Source of the DNA: Patescibacteria group bacterium | Lineage (GTDB): Bacteria > Patescibacteriota > Minisyncoccia > Phycocordibacterales > PALSA-1337 | Reading direction: 5' to 3' | Length of the DNA: 64,000 nt | NCBI GenBank assembly: GCA_038065395.1 | Contig: JBBTRB010000002.1 | Coordinates: 50,647-114,646, forward strand | Shown: piece after piece, positions 5,712-29,143 of the stretch | How the letters are laid out: the number at the start of each line of letters is the position of its first letter | How positions within the stretch are numbered: position 1 is the first letter of the stretch | The notes under the pieces: model-generated | The model's database searches: none | What the model was told of the DNA's origin: nothing | The model's input: only the letters and a program-made list of their open reading frames with translations | Made by a program: the position numbers and the translations under genes

Positions 5712-7115
5712 CTAATCATTCTTACGAAAATCCCTACCCTTATTCCCACCTCTGTCTTCTCGATCTTTCTTTTGGATTTGGATCTTGCCACTAGATTGCT
5801 TTTTGTTTTTCTCGAGACTTTTGACCGCAGAACCCGTGAGAGATTTTGAGTCTACCTTACTCACAGACTCCTTTGTAGAACTTTGTGATCCGGATTTCTT
5901 CGACTTCACACCTTCCTTGAACAAGAGCTCAGCCTCCTTTGCGGCACGTTCTGCTTCGAGGATCTGTGTACGAGCCTCGTCATCTTGGCCACGATCTTGA
6001 TACTCTTCGGCTTGGCGAATATATGCTCGTGCCTCGTCGAGATTGCGCGTCGTCGTATCGAACAGTTTGCCCTGCAATGAACCCGGGGCAACTTTTGTTT
6101 TGGTGATACGTGCGGTTATATCGGCGATCATCTTGTCTGTCGATGCTTTGCGACGAGTGTATGTTGCAGGATCTTTCTGGGAGACTGACTTTTTGGATTG
6201 CACAGAAGACGTAGGAGTCACTTGAGGTTGTGGCGCGATAGGTGCAACAGATGCATCAGAAACGTTGCCAGCCTCATTGGCAGTAGGTGCGGACTCGATC
6301 GACATCATCATCGACATCGTAGCCGCTACAGGGACTTCGGCCACCGAACCCGAACTGCGACTGCCTCGTAGAGACTCGGCACGTGAACGTGCCAGAGATG
6401 CCACCACAATCCTCTTGTCTTGTTTGTCCTCGTCATCCTCCGTGGGTGCCTGTCGTGCGGATCGTGAAGCATCATCCTCAACACTCTTCATCGAACGTGC
6501 TTGCAGAGTGATGCGCGGTGCGTCATTCTCCGCGATCACTTCCAGTACCTGCGCACGAGCACCGAGACCCGCCTGGAATGCCACACTGATCTCGTCAGCG
6601 CGATCTTCGGCACCCTCCTCTCTCACACGCTGCAGAGCACGGTCAAAGTCACGAGTGTGCTGATCTAGACGTGTCTCTATCTCTGCCTGTGTAGTGTCGT
6701 CGAGCTTGCCTGTGGTCGCCAGCACACTTGCTTCTTCGATACGTCGCTCGGCTTTCTCTGCATTCCAGTTCGCCTGTCCCTCCGACGAGACCGTGAGGGT
6801 GTCACGGAGAGGTTCGACGATGTCCACCTTGATCGGGTACAGGACACTTCCTGGCAAAGCTCTCTCTGCCGCAGAGACGACTCCACCACTACCGATGATG
6901 ATGACGAGTGCGAGACTTGCTACTACCCATCGCTGCTGGGTGACCCAGGTATTGAAGGTATATACACTCCATGGACTCTTCACGTGTCGAGGAGTGGCCT
7001 CAGACTGTGCAACAGGCATAGCCACGATACGTGCACGCATCGCGTTTTTCTCTGTATCCGTCATGCGGATATGTTTGAGATCTTCTATTGCTTTGTTGAA
7101 TCTGTTGTCTTTCAT
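5712..7115 (-). CDS. putative membrane-spanning anti-sigma factor / sigma-factor-associated protein
   Basis: Immediately downstream of the ECF sigma gene with a 4-bp overlap. One TM helix near residues 60-80 (VVASLALVIIIGSGGVVSAA). Long charged, low-complexity extracytoplasmic C-terminal region. Confidence 0.45.
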   Translation of the reverse strand: MKDNRFNKAIEDLKHIRMTDTEKNAMRARIVAMPVAQSEATPRHVKSPWSVYTFNTWVTQQRWVVASLALVIIIGSGGVVSAAERALPGSVLYPIKVDIVEPLRDTLTVSSEGQANWNAEKAERRIEEASVLATTGKLDDTTQAEIETRLDQHTRDFDRALQRVREEGAEDRADEISVAFQAGLGARAQVLEVIAENDAPRITLQARSMKSVEDDASRSARQAPTEDDEDKQDKRIVVASLARSRAESLRGSRSSGSVAEVPVAATMSMMMSIESAPTANEAGNVSDASVAPIAPQPQVTPTSSVQSKKSVSQKDPATYTRRKASTDKMIADITARITKTKVAPGSLQGKLFDTTTRNLDEARAYIRQAEEYQDRGQDDEARTQILEAERAAKEAELLFKEGVKSKKSGSQSSTKESVSKVDSKSLTGSAVKSLEKNKKQSSGKIQIQKKDREDRGGNKGRDFRKND

Positions 7116-9184: not shown

Positions 9185-9673
9185 TCACCGCCAAAACGTT
9201 GCATGTCGCGGAGTCAGGCGATACTTGAGCCAGTACCAGACGATCACCGGTTGCTGTCCGGCGATATTCTGGATCACAGGCACAAACTGATTGCCATGAT
9301 TATCATACGCTGTTGATGCCCAGAGTAAGACTTGCCAATCTCCACACTTCTCTCGGAGGAGTCCTGCATCGATGAGCCGGTGCGCGTCACCTAGGCCGAG
9401 ACAATATACGAGCTGTCCCACACCGACGATCCTCTCGAGCAACTCTTCGGCGACAGCATCTTTCCCTAAACCGAAGTTATAGTCATCAAGAGGATCATGG
9501 GTAGCGATGTCTCTCGGTATTTCGAGACGATTACTGTTGAGTCGATACAATATCAGCTTCGCAATATCCGAACCCAAGTATCCCTTCAGACCAGGATATA
9601 CGAAGTCGACCATCGAATCTGGCAACTCATCAGGACGAACGACCAAACCAACAAGCGGTTGCTGTAATGTCAT
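9185..9673 (-). CDS. hypothetical protein
   Basis: 162-aa ORF with its own terminator. No family recognised. Confidence 0.4.
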   Translation of the reverse strand: MTLQQPLVGLVVRPDELPDSMVDFVYPGLKGYLGSDIAKLILYRLNSNRLEIPRDIATHDPLDDYNFGLGKDAVAEELLERIVGVGQLVYCLGLGDAHRLIDAGLLREKCGDWQVLLWASTAYDNHGNQFVPVIQNIAGQQPVIVWYWLKYRLTPRHATFWR

Positions 9674-9804
9674 AGTTCATTCTCTTTCACACGTACAGAG
9701 GTTATCTAAAAGCTTATAATGGCATGGAGTTGGGACAAAAAGCAACATTTGACTAATAAGAAAGGTGGGTATATCGTGAGTTCAGAAAGGTTTGAAAACA
9801 CGCT

Positions 9805-10707
9805 ATGAAAAATATGATATACCATCGTGTCCCAAGGAAGTACCATCTACACTGGGATTGCCTCAGATACTCGATCGTTGTTTCGGTACACAATGACTGC
9901 ATTCGAACATTCAAAACAATCCCGATGACTTCTCCATGGGTGCAAGGCATCAGAGAAGCGCACTGTCCCGATCCGTTATTCTGTACGTTCCACCCTGATC
10001 TACAGGGTGAATTCTTTGGATTCGGCTCATGTATCCGCAAGACACATGTCCATAGAGACTACACCGAATTCATCATCGCTCTTCCACAGATACGAAAAGA
10101 TACTGGTCTTACCTGCCAGGAATGTGGTGGCACTGGTGAACACGATGTGCCACTTCGTAACTGCATCCATTGCCACGGGACTGGCAAAAAGATCAAGGAT
10201 GACTGGGACACTGCCTACCTCATCACATCGAATCTCAGCCTGATGCTCAACACGATTGAGGCATGTGAAGAGACTTCAACAACAGAGAGTCAACTAGCGA
10301 CTCTATCCGCTCTTTCACAACGATGCGAAAAAGGTAGTTCAGTAAGTGGAGTATTTGGAGCCGACCTCATGGATGTGCTCCGTACCGATCCCAAAATGGT
10401 GAGCCTCATGCTATTACCCAACGTCACAGATGCCATGATAACTGCAAACCAGCACATGATGGGTCCACGATGGGAAATGGGTCTGATAGGCACATCTCTC
10501 GAAGAAGGTCATCTTGCCTTCAACTCTGGATCAGAGGGACGCGGACTCAACCTATCAGGCACCATCGATGAGCCTGGTCGCGGCTGTAGGTTCAGTAGTC
10601 ACAATATCGACACCCCCGCCCAAGCCCTGACGATCATCGCTGGCATCGCTTCACTCGTTGGACAACTCACTATTCATGCCTCGGGACAAACAGCTGCCAC
10701 TTCGTGA
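9805..10707 (+). CDS. hypothetical Cys/His-rich protein with DnaJ-type CxxCxGxG zinc-finger pair
   Basis: CQECGGTGE...CIHCHGTGKK motif. Many additional Cys/His in the N-terminal 120 aa. Terminator downstream. Start codon uncertain. Confidence 0.4.
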   Translation: MKNMIYHRVPRKYHLHWDCLRYSIVVSVHNDCIRTFKTIPMTSPWVQGIREAHCPDPLFCTFHPDLQGEFFGFGSCIRKTHVHRDYTEFIIALPQIRKDTGLTCQECGGTGEHDVPLRNCIHCHGTGKKIKDDWDTAYLITSNLSLMLNTIEACEETSTTESQLATLSALSQRCEKGSSVSGVFGADLMDVLRTDPKMVSLMLLPNVTDAMITANQHMMGPRWEMGLIGTSLEEGHLAFNSGSEGRGLNLSGTIDEPGRGCRFSSHNIDTPAQALTIIAGIASLVGQLTIHASGQTAATS

Positions 10708-10760
10708 AAGCATAACTCTCTCACCTCGCACTCCTCTGTGCGAGTTTTTTAATGCAACAA

Positions 10761-10792
10761 AACCCTAAGTCTACCCTAGGGTCTTGTTTTTT
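10761..10792 (+). terminator. terminator hairpin (CCTAGG-family element) + T-run
   Basis: aaccctaagtctaccctagggtc followed by ttgttttttc. Confidence 0.4.
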
Positions 10793-10826
10793 CTAATTTC
10801 TAATTACCAATCTCTACTTTCGCTTC

Positions 10827-11390
10827 TTACTTCTTCCCTTTCTTGTCGTCTTCTTTCTTGAGTGGTAGACCGATGTGTTCGAGGAGAGCGAGAGTGTTCT
10901 TCTTGGAACGAGAGGTAGTGACGATCGTGATACTCATACCGAATACGTCCTTGAGATCTTCGTCGGAAGTCTCTGCGAAGATGGTGTGTTCCTTGATACC
11001 GATAGTGTAGTTGCCCATATCGTCGACAGAGTTGCGAGAGAGACCACGGAAGTCTTTGGTGCGAGGAAGAGCGATGTTGATCAGACGATCGAGGAATTCG
11101 TTCATGCGCTTGCCGCGGAGTGTGACCTGGTATCCGACAGGATCACCGACACGAGTCTTGAAGCTTGCGATAGCCTTCTTGGTAGCACGCATAGCTGGCT
11201 TCTGACCAGTGATACGAGCGAGACGATCTGCGATGAGCTCGATCTTCTTTTTGTCTTTGACAGAGCCGAAGCCACTCGAAATAACCACCTTGGAAAGCTG
11301 TGGAGCTTGCATCGGGTTCTTGATCGCAAGAGTATCCTTGAGCACCTTGAAAGAATCTTTATTGAGTTCGTATGTAGTCTTGTGAGTCAT
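10827..11390 (-). CDS. rplE: 50S ribosomal protein L5
   Basis: Full-length match to the uL5 pattern. Position after rplX. Confidence 0.95.
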   Translation of the reverse strand: MTHKTTYELNKDSFKVLKDTLAIKNPMQAPQLSKVVISSGFGSVKDKKKIELIADRLARITGQKPAMRATKKAIASFKTRVGDPVGYQVTLRGKRMNEFLDRLINIALPRTKDFRGLSRNSVDDMGNYTIGIKEHTIFAETSDEDLKDVFGMSITIVTTSRSKKNTLALLEHIGLPLKKEDDKKGKK

Positions 11391-14046: not shown

Positions 14047-14394
14047 TTATTTTGCAGAGGCAGTTGTAGCAGCTTCCTTGGCGGATTTTGCAGCAGCGAC
14101 TTCTGCTTCTTTGGCTTTGAGTTCGAGGTCCTTTTGCATCTTACCGCCATGGCGTACGAACTTGCGTGTCGGGGAGAATTCACCAAGACGATGTCCTACC
14201 ATGTCCTCGGTAGCGAGCACATCGATATGCATGCGGCCATTGTATACGCCGAACGTGAATCCGACCATCTCTGGTGAGATCTGAGAGCGACGTGACCAGG
14301 TCTTGATGACACCAGTCTCTGACGGCTTTTTGCCAGAAATCTTCTTGAGAAGATTCTCGTCGATATATGGTCCTTTCTTGAGTGATCGTGACAT
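14047..14394 (-). CDS. rpsS: 30S ribosomal protein S19 with about 25-aa K/A/E-rich C-terminal extension
   Basis: [12 protein letters not shown]...GHRLGEF matches uS19. The extension is [28 protein letters not shown]. Confidence 0.9.
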
Positions 14395-14568
14395 AAAAAT
14401 GGCTCAAACGAGCGTCCAGGCATGTTAACAGGATCGGTATTAGAAGTCAAGAAATATAAGGGGTTCCTATCTGCGCATACCCAGTTTATTGACACATACA
14501 TATAATTGTATTAGTGTATTTATTGAATCTCATCGTTCGTTAACAAACCTTCAACCAAAAGGAATAGT

Positions 14569-15033
14569 ATGACTGGTAGAACTAAGGATATTATTTGGAC
14601 GAGTCTTTCGGGACTTGGCATCGTGACAATCACCGTTATCGCGAGATGGTTCGCGTTATTCTCCGAGTCAAAATTATTCACCACTTCATCACTAGGAGGC
14701 GTCGCTTTCTTGACATTCTTCTACTGGACCCTCTTGATTATCGTGATGTCGGCGATCATTTATGTCAATGGACGAAAGATCGGCGTAGGTAGACCAATGG
14801 ATCTGAGCTATCTGCGTGACCGTGAAGTGATACTGGTGCTAGCGAAATGTCGTACCGACGTCACTTACATCACCGCCAGGACAGAGCGAGACGAAGTAGT
14901 CCTGCTTTACAATGAGGGTCCCGACAAGTTCGGTGCTGTCCGATCAGGATACTCCTATCGGTATACCAATGGGGAATTGGAACTTATAACGAGTCGTGAT
15001 GCCAAAGTTGCAACTGCCTCGGTCGCCGATTGA
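14569..15033 (+). CDS. hypothetical membrane protein (3 TM) with soluble C-terminal domain
   Basis: Hydrophobic helices in the first 90 aa. The stop overlaps the start of the downstream histidine kinase (ATGA). Confidence 0.45.
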   Translation: MTGRTKDIIWTSLSGLGIVTITVIARWFALFSESKLFTTSSLGGVAFLTFFYWTLLIIVMSAIIYVNGRKIGVGRPMDLSYLRDREVILVLAKCRTDVTYITARTERDEVVLLYNEGPDKFGAVRSGYSYRYTNGELELITSRDAKVATASVAD

Positions 15034-15920
15034 GCCTCCTCACCACCTCCGTCCCCTGCCTCGCGCTCGGGACGGATTTTTATATTATAGGATTTATATA
15101 TATGAATGATATAATAAAGTACACACATACCATGAACATCCCTTTTACTATTCTCGCAGTGTCAGTCGGTATTCTGATCGGTCTCCTCATCAGATACCTC
15201 GGCAGAGCTGTCTCACACAAGATCAACGAGACCGAGAACCTCAAATACGAATTCATCACGATCATCGCTCACAAGTTCCGCACACCACTCACGCAGATCA
15301 AGTGGCTCTCTGAGGCACTTGTCGCCGAAGAGCAGGATTCCTATAAGAAACAGAGCCTACAAGAAGTCGGCCGTTCGACTCAGCAGCTCATCGACCTTAC
15401 GGGTACACTGGTTGAGCTCACTGACTCTGACAGCGACTCCCAGGCATCGTATACCTTCGAACGTACCAACGTCTGTGACCTGGTGCGGTCTGTTGCTGAC
15501 ACCTTCAAGAACACCTTCCATGAAAAGAATCTTTTCCTTGCCATCAACTGCGCCAACCCTGACCTCTTCGCCAATATCGACAAGCCGCGCATGGAATTCG
15601 TCATACAGACTCTGCTACAAAATTCCGTCACCTATTCCCCACCAGGCAGGAATGTCGAGGTGACTATATCTGCAGATAGTAGTCGTGTCGTCATCACCGT
15701 CCATGACAACGGCATCGGCATCGAAGCCAAAGACATCCCGAAGATCTTCACCAAATTCTTCCGCACCCCGATCGCAAAACAAACAGATACCGAGGGCTTC
15801 GGTGTAGGCCTCTATCTCGTCCGAGCCATCGTCCGTCGTCACAAAGGCTCCATCGAAGTCGCTTCTCCTGGCCTCGCCAAAGGCGCCACCTTCCAGATCA
15901 CGATACCAGAGGTGAAGTAG
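15030..15920 (+). CDS. sensor histidine kinase (single TM, HisKA + HATPase_c)
   Basis: H-box IIAHKFRTPLTQI. G-boxes VHDNGIGI and GFGVGLYLV. No response regulator adjacent. Confidence 0.8.
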   Translation: MSLLTTSVPCLALGTDFYIIGFIYMNDIIKYTHTMNIPFTILAVSVGILIGLLIRYLGRAVSHKINETENLKYEFITIIAHKFRTPLTQIKWLSEALVAEEQDSYKKQSLQEVGRSTQQLIDLTGTLVELTDSDSDSQASYTFERTNVCDLVRSVADTFKNTFHEKNLFLAINCANPDLFANIDKPRMEFVIQTLLQNSVTYSPPGRNVEVTISADSSRVVITVHDNGIGIEAKDIPKIFTKFFRTPIAKQTDTEGFGVGLYLVRAIVRRHKGSIEVASPGLAKGATFQITIPEVK

Positions 15921-15925
15921 TCGAA

Positions 15926-17287
15926 TTAACTAGAGATCGTAATAGTCTTGATAAATTCATCGAGTGGTTGTATCTGCCCAGAACCAGTGATATTAACTTT
16001 GAGAAATACGTTGTCAGGCATTGCGATGATATATGTTCTCCATCGGGACACGCCCGTAAATACTGGGACGATATCGCTGATCATAAAGAGGGGGTGTGCT
16101 TCTGAAGCTGTTTGACTCTGTGAACGTTCGTCGCCTCCAATCTGCATCCATTTACCAGACACATCGTTGAATGCATAAGTAATACTGCCAAATTTAGCAT
16201 CAATATCCGTATAACTATAACTCTTTGTATAATCAAGAGTGATCCGATCTCCCGAAGAACTTTGAGTCAGCACGACCTGACTATCGATATTGTTGGTCAT
16301 AGTCCATCCTGTAGGAATCTGGAACGATATTCCCCAGTCGTCTTTATGAAATGATATTGATGGGGATATATTTATGAGAGCATCACCAGGAGGTAATTTG
16401 GGAATCGAGATTGCCGAAAGAATTTGTTCTTCTGTCTTTTTTGAATTCTCCGTTAGAGCCACAGACATGACAGTGAAGTCGTATACGCAGTCTGTTCTAT
16501 AATACGCATCAGCAAAACCAACTGTCCATATGCCATCGGTACTAGGATCACAAGCAGATCGCTTAATAATAGCTACCCCGTCTCGAGGATGATCTGTATC
16601 TTGTGTCACTTTCTGAGTATTGTCCCTAAGTTGCACGAACCAAGCCTGACTCATATCTTTCAGATCGTGACCTTCTTCAAATTGCCAATCTGATGGATAT
16701 TTAACCGTAACACCCTGATGAGGGTTTGTGTATGTCTTCCAATCATTTGATGATTGACTTTGAGTCAAAGCCGTAGCCACAGGATCAAAATATCCATCTA
16801 ACCCTCCCACAAAAGCATCCCCTGTAGTGAGATTTACTTTGACTTTCGGAAGTGCTGGTGCAGAACCCTGTTCACCCTTGCACCCATTTCCGAACTTCCT
16901 ACTCACGGCATAGGTGACAAATCCTCCTTCACGGATACCGTCGAAATCAAGACATTCTGCTGTTGAAAAATCTTTCAAGTCTACAAGAATGACCCTTTGT
17001 GCAACTTCAAGTGTCTGTTTTTCAGAGAGGTATCCGAGTGTATTCTCATTCCCTGTCGTCTTCGAATAGTAATATCCCCCACCAAGTAACAATACGCCGA
17101 TAATAGCAATAATTGCAGGTGTTCCGAATCCTCTCTGATACTGCATGTTTGTATTCATGTCCATAATAGTATCTCTGCGTGCCCATTTACACAATGTACA
17201 GGCAAGTAGCATACAAAAATCCCTCCCGCTTTGGTGCAGGAGGGATTTTTGATTTTCTAGTCTGGCAATACTTTGTGGATGAACCAC
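15926..17287 (-). CDS. hypothetical secreted/membrane-anchored protein (453 aa)
   Basis: Single N-terminal TM (AIIAIIGVLLLGGGYYY). Lies between rplB and the HK on the opposite strand. Confidence 0.5.
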   Translation of the reverse strand: MVHPQSIARLENQKSLLHQSGRDFCMLLACTLCKWARRDTIMDMNTNMQYQRGFGTPAIIAIIGVLLLGGGYYYSKTTGNENTLGYLSEKQTLEVAQRVILVDLKDFSTAECLDFDGIREGGFVTYAVSRKFGNGCKGEQGSAPALPKVKVNLTTGDAFVGGLDGYFDPVATALTQSQSSNDWKTYTNPHQGVTVKYPSDWQFEEGHDLKDMSQAWFVQLRDNTQKVTQDTDHPRDGVAIIKRSACDPSTDGIWTVGFADAYYRTDCVYDFTVMSVALTENSKKTEEQILSAISIPKLPPGDALINISPSISFHKDDWGISFQIPTGWTMTNNIDSQVVLTQSSSGDRITLDYTKSYSYTDIDAKFGSITYAFNDVSGKWMQIGGDERSQSQTASEAHPLFMISDIVPVFTGVSRWRTYIIAMPDNVFLKVNITGSGQIQPLDEFIKTITISS

Positions 17288-17333
17288 TCTACAATATTCT
17301 TGATCAGGATTTTGATATTCCTTAACATGAAGA

Positions 17334-18188
17334 CTATGTCCTACTGGTCATGTTCTTGCCTGGCTGACGGCGAGAGACGATGAAGACGTTGGAGTATTTC
17401 TTCGGAGTACGAGTCTTCTGGCCTTTGCCGGCTGGCTTGCCCCAACGAGTCTTGAGACGGCGGAGACCTCGGCCTTGGCGTTGTTCACCTCCACCGTATG
17501 GGTGGTCAACTGGGTTCTGAGCGGTACCGCGAACTGTTGGGCGGATACCCATCCAGCGACTGCGACCGGCTTTGCCGATGTTGACGAGGCGGTTCTCTTC
17601 GTTCGAGACTGCACCGATACTTGCCCATGCATCTTCATGAATCTTGCGCACTTCGGTCGAAGGGAGCTTGATATGAGTGTAACCAGCATCGTTTGCGATA
17701 ACCTGAGCGAAGGATCCTCCGGAACGAACGAGTTTACTGCCACTGCCTGGCTTGATCTCGAGATTGTAAACGAAAGCACCAACAGGGATTTTCTTGAGTG
17801 GAAGACGGTTACCAGTCTCGATAGGGGCGTTCTCAGATACCATGAATGAGTTGCCGACTTTCATGGTCTTCGGGAGAAGTACGTAGCGCTTCTCACCGTC
17901 CTTGTAGGCAACGAGTGCGATGTAGCCAGTACGGAAAGGATCGTACTCGACAGTTTTGACCGTTGCACGGATATCACGCTTGTCGTACATGAAGTCGATC
18001 ATGCGATAGAGCTTCTGGTGTCCACCACCCTTGTGACGAACCGTGATACGGCCGAACGCATTGCGTCCCATATCGCGCTTGAAACCGAAGGTCAACGGCT
18101 TGTATGGCTCTGTAGCGGTCACATACTGCTTGAACGGCAGCGTGGTCATGTGGCGGCGTGATTTACTTGTTGGTCGGTATGATTTCAT
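17334..18188 (-). CDS. rplB: 50S ribosomal protein L2
   Basis: Canonical uL2 (GRNAFGRITVRHKGGGHQ..., NPVDHPYGGGE). Confidence 0.95.
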   Translation of the reverse strand: MKSYRPTSKSRRHMTTLPFKQYVTATEPYKPLTFGFKRDMGRNAFGRITVRHKGGGHQKLYRMIDFMYDKRDIRATVKTVEYDPFRTGYIALVAYKDGEKRYVLLPKTMKVGNSFMVSENAPIETGNRLPLKKIPVGAFVYNLEIKPGSGSKLVRSGGSFAQVIANDAGYTHIKLPSTEVRKIHEDAWASIGAVSNEENRLVNIGKAGRSRWMGIRPTVRGTAQNPVDHPYGGGEQRQGRGLRRLKTRWGKPAGKGQKTRTPKKYSNVFIVSRRQPGKNMTSRT

Positions 18189-20465: not shown

Positions 20466-21650
20466 TTATGCGACGATCTTCGTTATAACTCCAGCGCCTA
20501 CTGTCTTGCCTCCTTCACGAACAGCGAAACGCTGCTGTGCTTCGAGCGCAACTGGTGCTACGAGTTTGACTTTGAAGGTCAAGGTGTCTCCTGGCATAAC
20601 CATCTCTTGAGAGAGAGTTACTTCGCCAGTGACGTCTGTAGTACGGATATAGAACTGAGGCTTGTATCCAGTGAAGAATGGTGTGTGACGTCCTCCCTCT
20701 TCTTTCTTGAGGATGTATACTTCTGCCTCGAACTCTGTGTGAGGCTTGACTGAACCTGGCTTGGCGAGGACCTGACCGCGAGATACGCCATCCTTGGCGG
20801 TACCACGGAGGAGGAGTCCTGCATTGTCTCCAGCCATGCCCTCCTTGAGCTGCTTGTTGAACATTTCGATACCAGTGATGACGGTCTTTGTGGTGTCTTT
20901 GAAACCGATGATCTCGACTTCTTCACCAACCTTGACCATACCACGCTCGATACGACCAGTAACTACTGTGCCGCGACCTTCGATAGAGAAGATGTCCTCG
21001 ATAGGCATGAGGAATGGCTTGTCTGTTTCGCGAACTGGCTCTGGGATGAAGGTGTCGAGAGCATTCATGAGTTCGTCGATCTTTGCTGACCATACTGGGT
21101 CGCCTTCGAGAGCCTTGAGGCCTGAACCACGGATAACAGGGGCTACTTTGCCATCGAAACCGTTCTTGGTGAGGAGTTCACGCACTTCTTCTTCGACGAG
21201 GTCGAGAAGGTCTGCTTCGGCGACTGCATCACACTTGTTGAGGAAGACGAGAACACGTGGAACACCAACCTGCTTTGCAAGGAGGATGTGCTCGCGTGTC
21301 TGTGGCATAACACCGTCAAGAGCAGAAACCACGAGGATAGCACCGTCCATTTGGGCGGCACCGGTGATCATGTTCTTGATGTAGTCGGCGTGACCTGGAG
21401 CGTCGATGTGAGCATAGTGACGCTTGTCTGACTCGTATTCTACGTGAGCAAGAGAGATAGTAACGATCTTGGATGCATCACGAACAGTACCGCCCTTTGC
21501 GATATCTGAGTAAGCCTTTGCATTGGCAAGACCCTTCTTTGCCTGAACGGCAAGGATAGATGCTGTCAATGTTGTCTTGCCGTGGTCAACGTGACCGATA
21601 GTACCCACGTTTACATGGGGCTTTGTACGATTGAATTCTGCTGCTGCCAT
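20466..21650 (-). CDS. tuf: elongation factor Tu
   Basis: [22 protein letters not shown]. Length 394 aa. Confidence 0.97.
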
Positions 21651-21899: not shown

Positions 21900-22256
21900 A
21901 TGATGCCACGAGAAAATCGGAGAGAGATTCTCCAAAGATACCATGATATGTACTACAGGATCAGGAAGGTTGCCTGCCCTGCTTTCTCGAAGGAGTTTGT
22001 TCATTTTAATAGACATGGGTTTAATCACCTCATTCGAAAAGGAAGAAAACTAAGGAAATTTGAAGATCAAATCAGACGCCTTAGATTATTGCCCAAAGCA
22101 GTAAGCATTCTAATGCGAGTTGACCAAATTATATCCTGCAAAACAATCCGAGAAGGTACTCGTGTGATAGATTTTTGGGAAATTGAGAGTGATAATGTCC
22201 ACGTCATTATTCGTAAGGTAAATAATGGTTCACTTCACTTTTTTAGTATTTTTTGA
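21900..22256 (+). CDS. hypothetical protein
   Basis: 118-aa basic ORF inside the fusA-tuf insert. No motifs recognised. Confidence 0.3.
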   Translation: MMPRENRREILQRYHDMYYRIRKVACPAFSKEFVHFNRHGFNHLIRKGRKLRKFEDQIRRLRLLPKAVSILMRVDQIISCKTIREGTRVIDFWEIESDNVHVIIRKVNNGSLHFFSIF

Positions 22257-22402
22257 GACAAAAAAGCCTCCGAAGAGGCTTTTAAGCGTTCGCCACCAGC
22301 TTTAGCCGATAGCACCTTCTTGGGATTCCTCCCAAAGGCACGCGAACAACGTACATAGACTATGTTAGCAAAAATTTTGAGTTCGTCAATCCTCTTCCAA
22401 GA

Positions 22403-25400
22403 CTACTGCCCCATAAAGTAACCTCTCACCGCCTCCCAGATCGAAGCCCTAGTATTGGCCTGACTTGTTGGTGATGGAGTAGGTGTCGGTGTAGCTGAGG
22501 TGCTCTGTTTGACGGTTGATGCAGGGACCGTAGCTGTCAACGTAGAACCATCATCGAAGGTTACCGTGAGTGTTCCGCCTGAGAATGTGGTCGACTCTGC
22601 TTGACCGTAGAGATCGAGAGATGTGGCTCCTGCATTGACTGCAATCGAGGCATTGTAACTTGAGTTCATAGAGACTCCATTCAAGAACACTGCGACCGGA
22701 TAATAACTGTTACTTGTCGAGGACCACATTTCATTCCTGTGTTGTAGCTGTATGCCTTTGATCGTACGTCCTGTCGGAAGAGTGAGCTTCGCTACCCAAT
22801 GCCAATCATTCGCATTCCTATTGACCATACCTGCACCAGGAGCAAATCCTGTGCCGACTTTGTCAGATGAGGCATCGACGAGGGTGGCGGAGAGTGAGGC
22901 TGTTGTTGGAGTGGTCGGAGTTACCGGAGTCACTGTGTAACATGTATAGTCTGAAGGACAACTCGTTACAGCCACTGGAGTACAAACATAACCGGCTGAA
23001 CATGAAGGATTGTTTCCTGGAGGGACACACATGTAACCTGCAGGACAGACAACAGGGGTCGGAGTCTGCGGCTTGATCGTCAACACTCCCTTCGCAACTG
23101 CGACTGAGTTTGAATATGCCATCACTGTGTATGTTCCTGGAGTGAGTGCTTGCGTGACTTTCGTTGACCAGCGGTTATTAACTACCGCGATGTCACCACT
23201 TCCCCAGACTTTATCTCCGCTCGCACTCGCAATATTTATACCAAATGGTGCTACGGTGTTGTACGCATATCCAGATATGGTAGGTGATATGGAAGTACTG
23301 ACCAAAGATGCGGAATCAATTGTTGCCGAAGGGTACGTAACCGCATCCACCCTCACGGTCGAACTTGTCTGCGCCTTTTGACCCGCAGCGTCAGTAACAG
23401 TTACTTTGACGGTGTAGGTGCCTGGATTTAAGTAAGAGTGAGTAAAGGTTGATGTCTGAACGAATGGTATTGATGCTGCGGTGATCATTCCCGGTTTCGT
23501 TGCTGTGTCACCCCAATCTATAGAATAACTGAGGGATCCATTTTCTGGGTCAGAGGCCATGATCTTCCATGTACCAACTTCCTTTGTCTTGAGGACTGTT
23601 GGGGCTGTGACGCCGTTGATGACGGGTGGGAGGTTGGTGGTTGGTGGTGCTATGATAGTTATATAACCGTCACTAAAATCACCCGCACCAGGTATCCCAC
23701 TTACACTTGTTATTTCTGCACGATACCTACCAAGCGGCATATCGGGTATATATACGGATTCTGCCCCATCATTCGCAGTACGGACGATATTTCTCGCAAT
23801 ACCATCATCACCATCAAAATAAATTTGCATTAATTCCGTACTCGGAACATTCACTGAATTCCAACGAATGGTATATGATTTCCCTACAGTAAACACTTCT
23901 CCTCCATTTGGACTCAGGACGGTGATGGAAGGTTGGGATACGGTCGAGGATGCGATACTGAATGTCGAACTTCTACCATAAATTCTACCGTCTGGGTCAT
24001 TTGCGACATCATGGATATCAATCTGATTATTCAAGGAGGCAACTCTTGGTATCCATCCGTAGATACATGTTCCACCGGAACATGCTGTCGTTGCGGATAC
24101 GGTGGCAATATTTTCATAACCAAAAGTCCCTCCGAGATTTATGGCATACAAAGGAGTTAATCCTTTTTCACGAGTGTCAGTCCAAATAATCTTGTACTGG
24201 AAGTTAGTCTGCAACACCTCACCAATTTTTGGATTTGTGACGGTGATGGCAGGGGTAGTTGTCGTAGCGACCACATTGACTATGACGGTACTAGTCGCGG
24301 CACTGGCAGAACCAACACTACTCCTATAGCAGGTCAAAGAATATCTGAATGTTCCCGCAGAAGCTGGGGCAACGATACTCAGCAAGCCGCTCGTTGTCCG
24401 ACTGGTATACATATTCCAATTCGGAACCTGGTTAGAGGTATAACACGTATCTGCGTTACTTGATGTCCACGAGAGATTCAGTGGTGACAACGTGTTGACA
24501 TTAAGTGGACCAGATGAGCCGTTGATGGTGAGGTTTACCGAGGCAGGGGTAGAAGTAGGCACGCTCCCTGTTCCATTCATAAATACATAATTCGTCATCC
24601 AATCAAATTCTCCCATATAGGTATTTTTGTCTCCACTAGAGCCACTCCAGTTAAAAGATTCGAGCTTCACGGCATAGTTACCAGCTACATGCTGAGAAGA
24701 TGACGCTGCAAATAGGTTCCACACTTGAAAAGTACTAGTATCCCCTTCTTCAATAGTATATGACCCGTCCACATTCCAACTTGCATTAGAGATACTACTA
24801 TAGCTTGTCACGAATTCCACAGCATCACTCTTTTGAGGATATATCCTTGTACCTGAACGATATAGACCGACACTAAACGCATTAGCAGGAATGGTTATAT
24901 CGGAACCTGATGCGGTTATTTTAATAGTAAATACTGATGACAACTGACTACTGCGTGGATTTTCATATGAGTACACCTCAGAAGTCTTCGAAACTAATGC
25001 TACTGCCATCTCAGAAGTTGGCCTCGTCACTTCACTCAAAGTAACGCTTCGATGATCATCATTTACAGAAATACCTAGGATTCCTTCGTTCCCGAACACA
25101 CCACCACGCAACTCAAACATATTCATCAAATAATCACCTGGGTTTGTGTTAAGATATAGTCCTATACCATTTGATGGTAATGGGGGGATATTCAAGTCAC
25201 CTTTTTCGGTGACAATGTCAGCAAAGAATGTACCTATGTAACCATCACCTTCCTCAACAACCGCTTTGATGCGACCGTTTTCTGCAGAGAGAGTATACTT
25301 GTCTGGCTTAGCTAACCCATTTTCAATGACATGATCTATGACATATCTTGTGCTTGAAGCGTAAACTCGCGCAGTGATGCTCTCGGTGCCCCACTTCACA

Positions 25401-26008
25401 TCTGCATAATAGTTACCCGTTGGTATATTAGGAAAATTGAATGTATCTATAGGAACAATGGAACCAAATTCATTACGAAGCGTGAGTGTTCCCTGATCTT
25501 TTATAGAACCAGAGTCCTCACGTACTTTGAAGTACATAACACCTGGTACTGGTGTTGTAAGAACACACGCATTCAAACTCGCTCTCGTCACTGGCCCAAA
25601 ATACCCCGTGGCTTCAATACCAACACTAGTCTGATATTTCTTGAGAGCCTGAGAAGTTTCGACTCCATAATAGCCGTATGGGTAGAATCCGACTTGCAAA
25701 GACGGGAGACTGAATCCTTTTGATATCAAAAGCTTTTGCAACGCGGTCACATCGTCACCTCGAGAACCGATAGTGAGATTGGTAGTGAAGGTGTAGCAAG
25801 GAACTGGAGTAGGATTGCTACTACCTCCTCCACCACCGTTACTTGGAGATGTTTGAGCTTGCGTCTGTGAGATGAATACAACAAAAAGCATCGCCACGAC
25901 GAGAAGCGATGCTTTTGTTACGAATGATACAAATTTGTTCATATAAAGGATGGTAAGTTGGATAATATCTATAGTATAGATACCCCGCATTATATCACCC
26001 CCCCCCAC
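22403..26008 (-). CDS. large secreted cell-surface protein: signal peptide, PG_binding_1-like domain, multiple Ig/PKD-like beta domains, Cys-rich C-proximal module
   Basis: Probable start at the internal Met (MNKFVSFVTKASLLVVAMLFVVFISQTQAQT; coordinate about 25942). Peptidoglycan-binding-like DDVTALQKLLISKGF...GYFGPVTRASL. PKD-like YSIDWGDTA...HSYLNPGTYTVKVTVTDAAGQ. CPAGYMCVPPGNNPSCSAGYVCTP. Confidence 0.8.
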   Translation of the reverse strand: MGGGDIMRGIYTIDIIQLTILYMNKFVSFVTKASLLVVAMLFVVFISQTQAQTSPSNGGGGGSSNPTPVPCYTFTTNLTIGSRGDDVTALQKLLISKGFSLPSLQVGFYPYGYYGVETSQALKKYQTSVGIEATGYFGPVTRASLNACVLTTPVPGVMYFKVREDSGSIKDQGTLTLRNEFGSIVPIDTFNFPNIPTGNYYADVKWGTESITARVYASSTRYVIDHVIENGLAKPDKYTLSAENGRIKAVVEEGDGYIGTFFADIVTEKGDLNIPPLPSNGIGLYLNTNPGDYLMNMFELRGGVFGNEGILGISVNDDHRSVTLSEVTRPTSEMAVALVSKTSEVYSYENPRSSQLSSVFTIKITASGSDITIPANAFSVGLYRSGTRIYPQKSDAVEFVTSYSSISNASWNVDGSYTIEEGDTSTFQVWNLFAASSSQHVAGNYAVKLESFNWSGSSGDKNTYMGEFDWMTNYVFMNGTGSVPTSTPASVNLTINGSSGPLNVNTLSPLNLSWTSSNADTCYTSNQVPNWNMYTSRTTSGLLSIVAPASAGTFRYSLTCYRSSVGSASAATSTVIVNVVATTTTPAITVTNPKIGEVLQTNFQYKIIWTDTREKGLTPLYAINLGGTFGYENIATVSATTACSGGTCIYGWIPRVASLNNQIDIHDVANDPDGRIYGRSSTFSIASSTVSQPSITVLSPNGGEVFTVGKSYTIRWNSVNVPSTELMQIYFDGDDGIARNIVRTANDGAESVYIPDMPLGRYRAEITSVSGIPGAGDFSDGYITIIAPPTTNLPPVINGVTAPTVLKTKEVGTWKIMASDPENGSLSYSIDWGDTATKPGMITAASIPFVQTSTFTHSYLNPGTYTVKVTVTDAAGQKAQTSSTVRVDAVTYPSATIDSASLVSTSISPTISGYAYNTVAPFGINIASASGDKVWGSGDIAVVNNRWSTKVTQALTPGTYTVMAYSNSVAVAKGVLTIKPQTPTPVVCPAGYMCVPPGNNPSCSAGYVCTPVAVTSCPSDYTCYTVTPVTPTTPTTASLSATLVDASSDKVGTGFAPGAGMVNRNANDWHWVAKLTLPTGRTIKGIQLQHRNEMWSSTSNSYYPVAVFLNGVSMNSSYNASIAVNAGATSLDLYGQAESTTFSGGTLTVTFDDGSTLTATVPASTVKQSTSATPTPTPSPTSQANTRASIWEAVRGYFMGQ

Positions 26009-26036
26009 TTAAAATACATTTTACAGGTGGATAAAA

Positions 26037-26064
26037 CGCAGATCCCCGCATTCGCGGGGATGAC
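26037..26064. repeat. 28-nt palindromic hairpin repeat (family GTCATCCCCGCG-N4-CGGGGATCTGCG), copy 1
   Basis: cgcagatccccgcattcgcggggatgac (reverse orientation). Confidence 0.8.
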
Positions 26065-26100
26065 TGCTACGTTATGATGTTGTGATGACAACGGACCTAA

Positions 26101-28245
26101 TTATTTTCGTTTTTCCGCGATCTCCTTCTCAACGTTCGCTGGTACTACTTCGTAGTGGTCGAATTCCATCATGGCACTGCCCTGACCGGAAGTCATAGAG
26201 CGTAGAGCTGTGGTGTAACCGAACATTTCTGATAGAGGCACCTTGGCATGGATAGCGATAGCCTGACCACGTGGTTCAGAACCTTCGACTTGACCGCGCT
26301 TGGAAGCGATGGAGCCGTTGACGTCACCCATGAATTTCTCTGGAGTGATGACCTCAAGCTTCATGATAGGCTCGAGGATCACAGGCTTTGCACGTCGAGC
26401 GGCTTCTTGGAAGGCCTGAGATGCAGCGATCTTGTAGGCGATTTCGGATGAGTCAACGTCGTGATATGAACCGTAGGTGAGCTCGCAAGAGACATTCACC
26501 AGTCTGAAACCGGCAACAATACCGCGGTCCATGGCTTCATGTACACCCTTTTCAACTGCAGGGATGAATTCTCCTGGGATAACACCTCCTTTGATCGAGT
26601 TGATGAATTCGAAGTCATCATAGCGCTTGATATGCTTGGGGATCTTCTCACCTTCTGGCCATGGTTCCATAGGCTTGATAGTGATCTTGACGTGACCGTA
26701 CTGACCTTTACCTCCAGTTTGCTTGATATATTTGTGTTCCGCCTCGGCAGTGCCCATGATCGTCTCACGATAGGCTACCTGAGGAGCACCGACGTTGGCT
26801 TCTACGCCGAACTCACGCTTCATACGGTCGATCATGATCTCGAGGTGCAGTTCTCCCATACCAGAGATGATCGTCTCACCTGTTTCTTGGTTAGAAGATA
26901 CACGGAATGTTGGATCTTCGTTACCGAGCTTCTTGAGTGCAAGACCCATCTTTTCTTGGTCGGCCTTGGTCTTTGGCTCAATACGGAGAGAGACCACTGG
27001 TTCCATGAACTTGATAGTTTCGAGGACGATCGGCTTGGTTTCGTCACAGAAGGTATGTGATGTCAGCGCGTCTTTGAGACCTACCGCAGCAGCGATCTCA
27101 CCTGCGAAGACTTTTTTGACCTCTTCACGCTTGTCAGCTTGGAGGCGGACGATGCGACCGAGGCGCTCTTTCTTGCCCGTAGTGGAGTTGTAGATATAGG
27201 TACCAGACTCGATAGATCCAGAATATACACGGAAGAAGGTCAATGCTCCGACGAATGGGTCGTTCTGGAGTTTGAAAGCCAATGCAGAGAACGGTTCTGT
27301 ATCAGATGGACCACGGAATACTTCTTCGCCTGTTTCTGGGTTGATACCTCTAACTGGTGGGATATCGAGTGGAGATGGGAGATAGTCGACAACCGCATCG
27401 AGAACGAGTTGTACGCCGACATTCTTGAGAGCAGATCCGGTGAATACCGGGAAGATCTTGTTGGCAATCACGGCCTTGCGAGTCAACGTCTTGAGTTCAT
27501 CCATAGTGAACTCTGCCCCTTCGAGGAAGCGGTTCATGGCAGCATCATCGGTCTCGACGATCTTTTCGATCATGATAGCGCGATATTTCTTGGCGTCAGC
27601 GAGCATATCTGCAGGGATTTCTTGTTCATTGATGACAATACCCTTCTCACCACTGAAGGTATATGCCTTCATGCGCATCAGGTCGACAACGCCGTTGTGG
27701 TCACCTTCGAGACCGATCGGGAGTTGGAAACGAACGGCGTTCTTGTTGAGACGTTCGAGTATCGAGGCATATGAACGCTCGAATGAGGCGCCGGTACGGT
27801 CCATCTTGTTGATGAAGCACAGACGTGGCACGTTACTCTCGTCAGCATAGCGCCAGTTGGTCTCGGACTGTGGTTCTACACCGGCTACACCGTCGAATAC
27901 GACTACCGCTCCGTCGAGTACGCGGAGCGAGCGCTTTACCTCTACGGTGAAGTCGATGTGCCCTGGAGTGTCGATAATGTTAAAACGGACTTTCTTGGAT
28001 ACATCTGTCGCTGGCATATAGGTCGGATTCCAGAAACAGGTGATGGCAGCCGCAGTGATCGTGATACCACGTTCGCGCTCTTGTTCCATCCAGTCGGTGG
28101 TTGTTTCACCTTCATGCACCTCGCCAATCTTGTGGATCATACCTGTGTAGTACAGGATACGCTCTGAAGTTGTGGTTTTGCCAGCATCGATGTGAGCAAT
28201 GATGCCGAAGTTACGCATTCTCTCGAGTGGGTAGTCGCGGTTCAT
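26101..28245 (-). CDS. fusA: elongation factor G
   Basis: AHIDAGKTTT, DTPGHIDF, NKMD. Length 714 aa. Confidence 0.97.
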   Translation of the reverse strand: MNRDYPLERMRNFGIIAHIDAGKTTTSERILYYTGMIHKIGEVHEGETTTDWMEQERERGITITAAAITCFWNPTYMPATDVSKKVRFNIIDTPGHIDFTVEVKRSLRVLDGAVVVFDGVAGVEPQSETNWRYADESNVPRLCFINKMDRTGASFERSYASILERLNKNAVRFQLPIGLEGDHNGVVDLMRMKAYTFSGEKGIVINEQEIPADMLADAKKYRAIMIEKIVETDDAAMNRFLEGAEFTMDELKTLTRKAVIANKIFPVFTGSALKNVGVQLVLDAVVDYLPSPLDIPPVRGINPETGEEVFRGPSDTEPFSALAFKLQNDPFVGALTFFRVYSGSIESGTYIYNSTTGKKERLGRIVRLQADKREEVKKVFAGEIAAAVGLKDALTSHTFCDETKPIVLETIKFMEPVVSLRIEPKTKADQEKMGLALKKLGNEDPTFRVSSNQETGETIISGMGELHLEIMIDRMKREFGVEANVGAPQVAYRETIMGTAEAEHKYIKQTGGKGQYGHVKITIKPMEPWPEGEKIPKHIKRYDDFEFINSIKGGVIPGEFIPAVEKGVHEAMDRGIVAGFRLVNVSCELTYGSYHDVDSSEIAYKIAASQAFQEAARRAKPVILEPIMKLEVITPEKFMGDVNGSIASKRGQVEGSEPRGQAIAIHAKVPLSEMFGYTTALRSMTSGQGSAMMEFDHYEVVPANVEKEIAEKRK

Positions 28246-28279
28246 AAAAATCTTAAAAATTAAATCTTAAATTTCAAAT

Positions 28280-28636
28280 CTATTTAGTAATATTTCTCTT
28301 CATGGTGATGATACTTGCCCCTAAGATGTCTGCTATTTCGTGAGTCTCCTTTAATAGTGGATCGGCTATTATTTTTTGTATCTTTCCCGTATCACGAGCT
28401 AGTCCGATCCACATCTTTGACTCATTGGCCGATTTGAGACTATACATATAGAAGTTTATATAATCTTTTCTAGAACTTGCCCCTTTAGCTTCAACAATGT
28501 TTGCCACCACAGAAGTACCGCTCCTCACTAATTGCTTTGCGATAACCTGAGCCGAAGTATCTCCAGTGAACCTGTCGACACATTTTACGATATTTATGGC
28601 GTATTTGTACAATCTCTGATCAAAATCTTTTTTCAT
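28280..28636 (-). CDS. four-helix-bundle protein (TIGR02436 / 23S-rRNA-intervening-sequence protein family)
   Basis: About 118 aa with ...VANIVEAKGASSRKDYINFYMYSLKSANES... resembling the family core. A paralog lies at 44985..45329. Confidence 0.75.
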   Translation of the reverse strand: MKKDFDQRLYKYAINIVKCVDRFTGDTSAQVIAKQLVRSGTSVVANIVEAKGASSRKDYINFYMYSLKSANESKMWIGLARDTGKIQKIIADPLLKETHEIADILGASIITMKRNITK

Positions 28637-28672
28637 CTTTAAGATTTGATTTTTAATCTTTTAGATTAAAAC

Positions 28673-29143
28673 TTACCACGCAAAGTGAGCAAAAGCCTTG
28701 TTGGCCTCGGCCATCTTGTGGACGTTTTCGCGTTTCTTGACGGCTTCGCCTTCATTCTTGGAAGCAGCAATGATCTCGTCAGCGAGTTTCTCGGCGATCG
28801 GCTTGCCCTTTTTGGAGCGAGCGGCTTCGACGATCCACTTCATAGAGAGAGACTGTTTGCGCTCTGGGCGAACCTCGCGAGGGACCTGATAGTTGGCACC
28901 ACCGACACGGCGGGAGCGCACTTCCATCTGAGGTGAGGTGTTCTTGAGAGCAGCTTCGAAAACCTCTATCGGATTCTCGACTTTGGCCTTCTCCTTGATG
29001 ACGTTCATACAGTCATAGACTGCGGTACGTGCAGTGTTTTTCTTGCCAGATTCCATCACATAGTTGATGAACTTTGAGATCTTGAGAGACTCGTAGGCTG
29101 CATCTGGATTGAGGGTGCGTTTTATATTGAGTTTACGTCGCAT
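28673..29143 (-). CDS. rpsG: 30S ribosomal protein S7
   Basis: Canonical uS7. Confidence 0.95.
   Translation of the reverse strand: MRRKLNIKRTLNPDAAYESLKISKFINYVMESGKKNTARTAVYDCMNVIKEKAKVENPIEVFEAALKNTSPQMEVRSRRVGGANYQVPREVRPERKQSLSMKWIVEAARSKKGKPIAEKLADEIIAASKNEGEAVKKRENVHKMAEANKAFAHFAW

Follow-up and report, generated by a model that had tools for sequence, protein, structure and literature searches.

Why are the ribosomal protein genes rplB and rpsS, which form one of the most stable gene adjacencies in bacteria, separated by 2,939 nucleotides (nt) in a Patescibacteria group bacterium? The locus lies in a 64,000-nt stretch of contig JBBTRB010000002.1 (assembly GCA_038065395.1, positions 50,647 to 114,646), which was analyzed as a whole and is called the window here; all coordinates below are window positions. 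A row of ribosomal genes occupies the minus strand. Its upstream half consists of tuf (20466-21650), rpsJ, rplC, rplD, rplW, and rplB (17334-18188), and its downstream half of rpsS (14047-14394), rplV, rpsC, rplP, rpmC, rpsQ, rplN, rplX, and rplE (10827-11390). Three non-ribosomal genes are present in the rplB-rpsS spacer (14395-17333). Two of them are antisense to the row and encode a putative class I histidine kinase and a 154-amino-acid (aa) protein, and the third encodes a protein of about 412 aa. The interruption had been pointed out in an initial annotation of the sequence, and the Pfam matches to L2 and S19 on the two edges of the gap confirm it.

It was found that the split is real and conserved, and that it is mechanistically ordinary. 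The components (a class I kinase, sigma-70-type promoters, and an intrinsic terminator) are ordinary, too. What is unusual is that a whole clade has long kept the S10 row split at rplB|rpsS, where an antisense gene for signalling and a hotspot of cargo are found. The searchable literature on Patescibacteria and the Candidate Phyla Radiation (CPR) that concerns ribosomal operons, histidine kinases, or rpoB/rpoC insertion yielded no description of such a layout.

A break specific to the rplB-rpsS junction

Is this break common among the relatives of the bacterium? I scanned one genome per GTDB species for RplB and kept the 80 closest loci (individual loci and genomes are cited by L numbers). The RplB of the window is 95% identical to the RplB of L001 and L002, two metagenome-assembled genomes (MAGs) of Paceibacteria/Parcubacteria. 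The interrupted junction with an antisense kinase recurs in 28 species representatives: 28 of the 80 loci carry an orthologue of the kinase (45-66% identity) between rplB and rpsS, in each case antisense, and one of these loci belongs to a chromosome-level assembly (L009). Among relatives whose RplB is at least 83% identical to that of the window, the distance from rplB to rpsS exceeds 400 nt in 28 of 31 evaluable loci. A gap of this size was found between rplC and rplD in nine of 34 loci, and at each of 12 other junctions in no locus or in one. Distant relatives mostly have the usual rplB-rpsS spacer of 20-160 nt. The break is specific to the rplB|rpsS site.

The kinase family was also approached from the other direction. 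Four independent metagenome contigs of the Joint Genome Institute (JGI) were reached from kinase homologues, by a search that is unbiased as to genomic location. All four have the kinase antisense beside rpsS. Three of them have rplB on the other side of the kinase, and the fourth carries MacAB-type cargo there and ends before rplB. Since the search that started from the kinase returned the same position, the kinase family is tightly linked to this locus.

Could the arrangement be an assembly chimera joined at about 14.4 or 17.3 kb, the alternative raised in the initial annotation? The exact kinase sequence is recorded in NCBI, ENA, and Logan, and eight contigs carrying it were read, including CAYHKE010000001.1 (761,713 bp, GCA_964357315.1). 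Seven of the eight have mostly identical neighbour genes; they were judged similar and are not shown separately. There is no positive evidence for a chimera, and the contig ends found inside the gap in L001, L013, L022, L026, L035, and L036 mark a region that can be hard to assemble. Against it stand the same layout on eight contigs from several sources, its presence in 28 other species including the chromosome-level assembly and on the independent JGI contigs, and the position of the supposed joins, which fall at a terminator and a conserved promoter rather than at arbitrary points. An assembly error is refuted by these observations, and the probability left to it is negligible.

CPR phylogeny and binning routinely rely on ribosomal protein blocks as contiguous markers. 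Contig breaks or "foreign" genes in the ribosomal blocks of such MAGs need not mean mis-assembly, and the rplB|rpsS split may serve as a simple synapomorphy-like marker for the clade.

Predicted transcription signals at the junction

The canonical S10 operon of Escherichia coli and Bacillus subtilis consists of eleven genes (rpsJ-rplC-rplD-rplW-rplB-rpsS-rplV-rpsC-rplP-rpmC-rpsQ). All eleven are present in the window in the same order and on one strand, and the row runs on into rplN-rplX-rplE of the spc operon. In the canonical operon, a short spacer separates rplB from rpsS and the genes form one transcription unit. In contrast, the spacer of the window holds three non-ribosomal genes, and the row appears to be cut by a terminator after rplB and to restart at a predicted promoter before rpsS. 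A further difference from the canonical operon concerns its leader: Rfam searches of the whole window at the gathering threshold gave no matches, so that no known ribosomal protein leader or riboswitch is present.

Directly after the rplB stop codon, the ribosomal strand reads AAAAATCCCTCC-N-GGGAGGGATTTTT (17214-17251). The predicted hairpin has a 16-bp stem and a folding free energy (dG) of -29.5 kcal/mol (z -6.3), and none of 200 shuffled sequences folds as well. As far as can be judged from the sequence, it is a textbook intrinsic terminator. It is flanked by an A-run and a U-run and could therefore act in both directions. Comparable strong hairpins with U-runs follow rplB in many relatives. 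A generic scan for promoters and terminators gave counts that were not above those of shuffled sequences; the rpsS promoter appeared only as one of its eight matches, and the rplB terminator was missed because its loop and stem geometry lies outside the scan rules. Comparative analysis was used instead.

An internal promoter for rpsS-rplE had been postulated in the initial annotation. Such a promoter is strongly indicated by TTGACT-17-TAACAT with an upstream TG at 14450-14422 on the minus strand, since TTGACT-N16/17-TAnnnT, mostly with the TG, precedes rpsS in 57 of 61 loci (background 2.2% per 140 nt). The promoter is no result of the insertion: outgroup genomes have the same motif in an uninterrupted rplB-rpsS spacer of 20-160 nt. 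Because a putative terminator and a putative promoter meet at this junction, and the latter is also present at intact junctions, I infer that rplB|rpsS was a transcription-unit boundary before any insertion. Since the junction would already have been such a boundary, DNA could be inserted there without breaking the operon. An internal promoter combined with a terminator can thus make the interior of an operon a tolerated insertion site.

How is the kinase itself transcribed? Where the kinase gene abuts rpsS, an extended -10 element on the kinase strand (TGnTAnnnT) lies 2-32 nt from the rpsS -35 element in ten of 12 loci (background 6.5% per 60 nt). Thus, the putative kinase and rpsS promoters are arranged back-to-back. 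This arrangement is lost in the window, in which the 154-aa gene intervenes.

The segment from the rpsS promoter to the start codon is itself conserved. The window and L002 share about 97% identity over promoter and leader, and the similarity stops sharply just past the -35 hexamer. Between the -10 element and the start codon, 28 leaders (the window and 27 related loci) have the motif (A)GCTC-N4-6-GRGC(T)-N1-2-TTTT in nearly invariant form. The form found here, GCTC-N4-GAGC with a U-run, is the sole exact match in the window, and three other sites have one mismatch. The leader fold is weak alone (dG -4.9 kcal/mol). The 28 leaders showed almost no covariation, and there was no Rfam match and no obvious Shine-Dalgarno sequence. 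An RNA hairpin is not demonstrated, given the near absence of covariation; the motif could be a protein-binding site, a 5′ stabilizer, or a weak attenuator.

A different configuration is seen in many of the outgroups with an intact junction. The rpsS -10 element (TAGTAT) of these genomes ends 6-9 nt before the ATG, as in AAAAAACC-ATG. Examples of this near-leaderless type are L051, L052, L054, L057, L059, L062, L064, L067-L069, L071-L074, L078, and L080. The short distance suggests that the internal promoter of these outgroups may produce a leaderless or near-leaderless rpsS message.

Entry of small gene sets into a conserved gene cluster between operons has been described for Gammaproteobacteria and Bacilli (PMC8046335). 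The events treated in detail in that paper are situated at boundaries between operons or, within the rpoBC operon, at the rplL-rsmC junction. The present case resembles them in that a few unrelated genes sit at a transcription-unit boundary, are inherited vertically, and are lost in some descendants, and in that long-distance transfer is unnecessary to explain the pattern. It differs from those events in that the site falls within a stretch that forms a single operon in model organisms, a signalling kinase is encoded by the conserved antisense gene, the clade belongs to CPR/Paceibacteria, and the site is a recurrent hotspot with highly variable cargo.

Nature and descent of the antisense kinase

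What does the conserved antisense gene encode? A minimal HisKA-HATPase kinase had been proposed in the initial annotation, and Pfam, conserved motifs, and PDB matches all support this assignment. On the plus-strand 296-aa open reading frame (ORF; 15030-15920), HisKA scores 34.8 bits (cut-off 26.9) and HATPase_c 91.4 bits. The H-box EFITIIAHKFRTPLT with its phospho-acceptor histidine is conserved in 30 orthologues, as are the other motifs of the H, N, G1, F, and G2 set (LLxNA..Y, DNGIGI, FxKFFR, GFGVGLYL). Residues 40-270 match the cores of VicK/WalK, HK853, SrrB, and PhoR in the PDB with E-values of 1e-27 to 1e-23. The N-terminus consists of a tail of about 12 residues and one transmembrane (TM) helix that leads directly into the DHp domain. 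Hydropathy analysis gave a single hydrophobic segment at residues ~10-37, in agreement with the orthologue alignment. No PAS, HAMP, or other domain that might serve as a sensor was found before the DHp by Pfam, the 30-orthologue alignment, or hydropathy. The kinase missed all NCBIfam equivalog cut-offs (PnpS 150.8 vs 400, WalK 138.5 vs 725, and PhoR 131.8 vs 334 bits).

The full-length ORF had been described as overlapping the upstream gene by 4 bp. This overlap is an artefact of choosing the longest ORF: alignment with the 30 orthologues places the start at ATG 15102 (272 aa), which leaves a 68-nt spacer. NCBI calls ATG 15132 (262 aa). The kinase gene and the 412-aa gene are convergent with stop codons 5 nt apart (15920-15926). 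No convincing terminator was found between these two genes in either direction, and their transcripts probably overlap at the 3′ ends.

Class I HisKA kinases with solved cores (VicK/WalK 4i5s, HK853 2c2a/3dge, SrrB, and PhoR) share with the window kinase the H-box of the DHp domain and the N, G1, F, and G2 motifs of HATPase_c. In contrast to them, the window kinase lacks a PAS, HAMP, or extracytoplasmic domain and has no adjacent regulator. The absence of an adjacent response regulator, which had also been claimed before, was confirmed in the window by phmmer and in the neighbourhoods of the relatives. Searches with CheY, PhoB, and Spo0F found no canonical receiver in the window. In the relatives, no regulator adjoins the antisense kinase; the nearby regulators in L016, L031, L044, and L001 have kinases of their own. 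A receiver domain had been reported at 48.5 kb. A receiver-like ORF does exist there (48434-48928, plus strand), and its score of 29.4 bits is under the Pfam cut-off of 30.2.

I regard the protein as a functional orphan kinase, as judged from its sequence features. It looks functional in that the catalytic motifs are intact and the ratio of nonsynonymous to synonymous substitution rates (dN/dS) is 0.04-0.15, rough values with saturated synonymous sites that point to purifying selection; both lend indirect support to autophosphorylation and phosphotransfer activity. Since the kinase lacks a sensor domain, it probably receives its input via the membrane or from accessory proteins. By analogy with intramembrane-sensing kinases, candidates for such accessory proteins would be the upstream two-TM protein and, in relatives, a MacB-type exporter.

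The intramembrane-sensing kinases of Firmicutes (BceS and LiaS type) sense via ABC transporters or small membrane proteins. Like them, the window kinase has no extracellular sensor domain. A gene for a small membrane protein, possibly an accessory one, lies just upstream in the window and in L002. An ABC exporter (MacA-MacB-FtsX) is present in the ribosomal row of about 18 relatives and absent from the window. Unlike them, the kinase has one predicted TM helix, not two joined by a very short extracellular loop, and it has no adjacent regulator; moreover, the transporter of the relatives is of the MacB type with an HlyD adaptor, not of the BceAB type. With one TM helix instead of two, the kinase was not assigned to the BceS/LiaS group.

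How old is the kinase gene at this site? Its composition is native (GC content at third codon positions, GC3, 0.64; z +1.6). Pairwise identities of the kinase are correlated with those of RplW+RplB (Mantel r 0.47, reached by none of 5000 permutations), and reciprocal nearest-neighbour pairs coincide between the two data sets. A neighbour-joining tree was built from three short proteins (RplD+RplW+RplB) of 34 loci. Kinase carriers are spread over its whole ingroup, beginning with the earliest branch (the window genome and L002). Ingroup genomes without the kinase, such as L003, L012, L017-L020, L024, and L025, are scattered among them, and the kinase is missing from the outgroup. This pattern fits one old gain of the kinase, vertical inheritance under purifying selection, and several losses as the simplest reading. 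Alternatively, the kinase might have been inserted repeatedly and site-specifically at rplB|rpsS in different lineages. Its presence within the ingroup is indeed patchy, the gap of L048 holds a different sense-strand seven-TM (7TM) kinase, and that of L001 an extra kinase-regulator pair. Yet kinase divergence follows ribosomal protein divergence as just described, orientation and promoter arrangement are constant, and no mobility genes are present, all of which make repeated insertion very improbable.

Taken together, the following explanation of the locus is the one that I consider likely. The S10 row of this lineage would consist of two transcription units, one from tuf/rpsJ to rplB that is ended by the intrinsic terminator, and one from rpsS to rplE that is started from its own sigma-70-type promoter. 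The promoter would be older than any insertion, so that the rplB|rpsS spacer tolerates additional DNA. At an early point in the history of one clade, the gene of a minimal class I kinase with a membrane anchor may have settled antisense in the spacer, with its promoter back-to-back with that of rpsS. It would then have been inherited vertically under purifying selection and lost in some branches. Variable cargo would have gathered later in this spacer and in rplC|rplD. In the window genome, the cargo would comprise two genes: a recently acquired, AT-rich one on the rplB side of the kinase, which encodes a PsbP-like protein with a membrane anchor, and a fast-evolving one upstream of the kinase, which encodes a two-TM protein. 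The kinase would most likely work as an ordinary two-component sensor that receives its signal via the membrane or accessory membrane proteins and phosphorylates an unlinked, probably OmpR-type, response regulator.

In this account, the layout of the locus, its conservation, the selection acting on the kinase, and the motifs of promoter and terminator are observed, whereas the activity of the promoter, the tolerance of the boundary for insertions, and the input and target of the kinase are inferences. Several points weigh against this explanation. The sensor role is drawn by analogy, and no response regulator was found in the window or beside the kinase in relatives. The rpsS promoter and the rplB terminator are predicted from motifs and conservation. 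In the window, the 154-aa gene and a hairpin part the kinase from the rpsS promoter. A neighbour-joining tree of three short proteins does not rigorously settle how many losses occurred or whether the gain was single or repeated. Lastly, strictly conserved antisense orientation and back-to-back promoters over deep divergence could mean that a coupling between kinase and ribosomal genes has been selected.

Is the kinase functionally coupled to the ribosome? Such a link is unproven, and nothing found in this analysis shows one. If coupling existed, the kinase would stay at this site owing to a tie between the rpsS-rplE operon and either kinase expression or the activity of the cognate response regulator. 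The tie would consist of the shared back-to-back promoter region or of convergent antisense transcription into rplB. An envelope or host-contact signal would thereby be joined to ribosome synthesis. At least 28 species, whose synonymous sites are saturated, have kept the kinase in the same position and in antisense orientation. The close spacing of the kinase -10 and rpsS -35 elements in most abutting loci, the near-identity of the promoter/leader block in the window and L002 between diverged flanks, and the sequence-invariant motif before rpsS would also be expected. However, cargo often flanks the kinase on its rpsS side or its rplB side, the window included, and close promoters are not obligatory. 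Several ingroup genomes lost the kinase and kept the promoter and leader, and outgroup genomes have the promoter without the kinase. Gene order may also persist merely because rearrangement inside an essential row is costly in small genomes. I consider functional coupling unlikely. A more specific version, in which a conserved bidirectional control region of kinase and rpsS promoters tunes the synthesis of the distal S10/spc ribosomal proteins to a signal from the membrane or from host contact, for which accessory membrane proteins or the MacAB-type exporter of the same row might act as relays, is hardly likely either. If true, signalling would be connected to ribosome production in a manner specific to this lineage of ultra-small episymbionts.

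The explanation by two transcription units and an old kinase gain has consequences of its own. A whole Paceibacteria clade splits the row here and keeps the kinase, and rplB|rpsS and rplC|rplD would be landing pads for envelope and transport genes. Signalling proteins are very few in these reduced genomes, and the kinase, as one of them, would be a defined target for experiments on sensing of the host or surroundings.

Variable cargo and other interruptions of the row

The features of the rplB-rpsS junction in the window are listed in Table 1.

Table 1. Features at the interrupted rplB-rpsS junction, in the order of transcription of the ribosomal row
Feature	Coordinates	Strand	Basis and remarks
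rplB (ribosomal protein L2)	17334..18188	-	Pfam Ribosomal_L2_N + Ribosomal_L2_C; last gene of the predicted upstream transcription unit
Predicted intrinsic terminator 3′ of rplB	17214..17251	-	Inverted repeat, RNA fold
Membrane-anchored extracytoplasmic protein, predicted (412-aa protein)	15926..17164	-	Start at 17158, 17164, or 17212 possible
Putative orphan class I histidine kinase	15102..15920	+	Pfam, 30-orthologue alignment; conserved core of the insert
Hairpin followed by AUUUUUAU, between the 154-aa gene and the kinase start	15048..15076	+	RNA fold
154-aa protein with two hydrophobic segments	14569..15033	+	Hydropathy analysis; same strand as the kinase and upstream of it
Predicted promoter of rpsS-rplE	14422..14450	-	-35 TTGACT (14450-14445), 17-nt spacer, TG, -10 TAACAT (14427-14422)
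rpsS leader motif GCTC-N4-GAGC + U-run	14396..14413	-	Ends just before the rpsS ATG
rpsS (ribosomal protein S19)	14047..14394	-	Pfam Ribosomal_S19; first gene of the predicted downstream transcription unit

A secreted protein of 453 aa had been annotated on the ribosomal strand. This length does not hold; the real protein has about 410-428 aa. The first ~25-40 codons of the 453-aa ORF contain the putative rplB terminator, and its start is thus too early. NCBI gives 410 aa and another gene caller 428 aa (start 17212); the real start is probably ATG 17164 or 17158. Hydropathy analysis gave one N-terminal hydrophobic helix. The gene has a GC3 of 0.36 (z -2.6), and the other interrupters of the row in the window are similarly AT-rich. 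Nine homologues were found in 5.8 billion proteins. The gene is probably a recent acquisition. The protein scores 21.3 bits against Pfam PsbP_2, below the cut-off of 27. Its AlphaFold2 model has a confident all-beta C-terminal domain, with a mean pLDDT of 63. The best Foldseek match is PsbP/Mog1, a weak one (cyanobacterial PsbP, E 5.8e-4, target-normalized TM-score 0.41). No function is assigned from this likeness, as the similarity is weak and the quality of the model is moderate.

The small protein upstream of the kinase had been annotated with three TM segments; hydropathy analysis gives two hydrophobic segments. It has no Pfam match. Exhaustive HMMER searches of 1.84 billion representatives returned the protein itself and a marginal 34-residue match (E 8e-5). 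Neither this protein nor the 412-aa protein gave a tblastn match at E<=1e-5 in any of the 80 loci. The composition of the 154-aa gene is native. Since 31% identity over 88 aa is still shared with the ORF found in the corresponding place in L002, the gene is best read from its sequence as a fast-evolving local gene. It may encode an accessory protein of the kinase. The hairpin and U-run in the 68-nt spacer between the two genes (dG -18.2 kcal/mol, z -2.4) have an analogue at the same place in L002 and may be a partial terminator or attenuator.

Did the segment arrive as a whole? It had been described as a single 3-kb insert, and this does not hold: there are at least two layers, an old antisense kinase shared by at least 28 species and newer lineage-private cargo. 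The idea of a recent horizontal island, in which the whole segment came together as one mobile or foreign block, draws on the foreign composition and near-uniqueness of the 412-aa gene, on the effectively orphan 154-aa protein, and on the relatives, whose gap content differs in almost every case and includes 82 singleton ORFs. For the kinase, this idea is refuted by native composition and orthology across the clade, and the 154-aa gene has its positional counterpart in L002. No integrase or transposase domains were found in the three genes, repeats are short and due to chance, and the window contains no tRNA gene. PADLOC models gave no signature of a defence system around the segment. A mobile element or genomic island was rejected, as there is no integrase, transposase, flanking repeat, or attachment site. 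The island would hold at most for the 412-aa gene, and as an account of the whole segment it is highly unlikely.

Cargo lies on either side of the kinase across the relatives. The recurrent sets are a MacA(HlyD)-MacB ATPase-FtsX exporter, a DEAD-box helicase, a pyridoxal phosphate (PLP) decarboxylase, an aminotransferase, and a reverse transcriptase. A well-conserved operon of a MacA(HlyD) adaptor, a MacB ATPase, and an FtsX/MacB_PCD permease is present in the S10 row of about 18 related species, and the ATPase and permease are 70-90% identical between species. It lies at rplC|rplD in L005, L013, L021, L047, L049, L050, L087, and L088, and at rplB|rpsS in L006, L010, L014, L038-L042, L055, L060, and L086. 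Other gap contents include a reverse transcriptase (L040, 12528-13595), a 2089-aa alpha-2-macroglobulin with a class A penicillin-binding protein (L004, 11133-19277), and an extra sense-strand kinase with a double-receiver regulator (L001, 4751-6598). The sense-strand 7TM-type kinase of L048 (13590-15173) occurs in a genome that lacks the antisense kinase.

Pairs of an OmpR-type regulator and a kinase lie antisense upstream of tuf in L016 (4294-6352), L031 (2777-4685), and L044 (2326-4155), all on the minus strand in locus coordinates, at distances from tuf of a few hundred bases to about 1.7 kb; a PG_binding gene lies between in L031. These pairs form a second signalling module beside the ribosomal row. 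The regulators were rejected as partners of the antisense kinase, as each has its own adjacent kinase. The receiver-like ORF at 48434-48928 in the window is a divergent single-domain sequence, which has the DD pair and a candidate acceptor Asp and is missed by the CheY, PhoB, and Spo0F queries. It adjoins a PilB-type T2SSE ATPase gene (46619-48406).

Homologues of the 412-aa protein (42-64% identity over partial length) were found between rpoB and rpoC in L082 (6001-7107) and in L083 and L084 (both 6001-7029). Their genes have sense orientation and are tightly packed, with 10-18 nt to either neighbour. Thus, another near-universal adjacency is broken in other Patescibacteria.

The row of the window departs from the canonical S10/str layout at further places: it stops after rplE and is interrupted at rpsG|fusA and fusA|tuf. 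No rpsN, rpsH, or rplF follows rplE (9185-10826). Two hypothetical genes (300 aa, plus strand; 162 aa, minus strand) are found there, and both follow rplE in L002, too. An extracytoplasmic function (ECF) sigma factor gene follows rplE in L086, and a gene for a 1767-aa Laminin_G protein follows rplP in L089. The str operon is interrupted as well (21900-29143). A 118-aa gene of PF05635, the 23S rRNA-intervening-sequence protein family, lies in rpsG|fusA (28280-28636). A gene for a 1201-aa PKD/PG_binding surface protein (22403-26008) and an antisense 118-aa ORF (21900-22256) lie in fusA|tuf. All three interrupters of the str row are AT-shifted (GC3 z -1.9 to -2.8).

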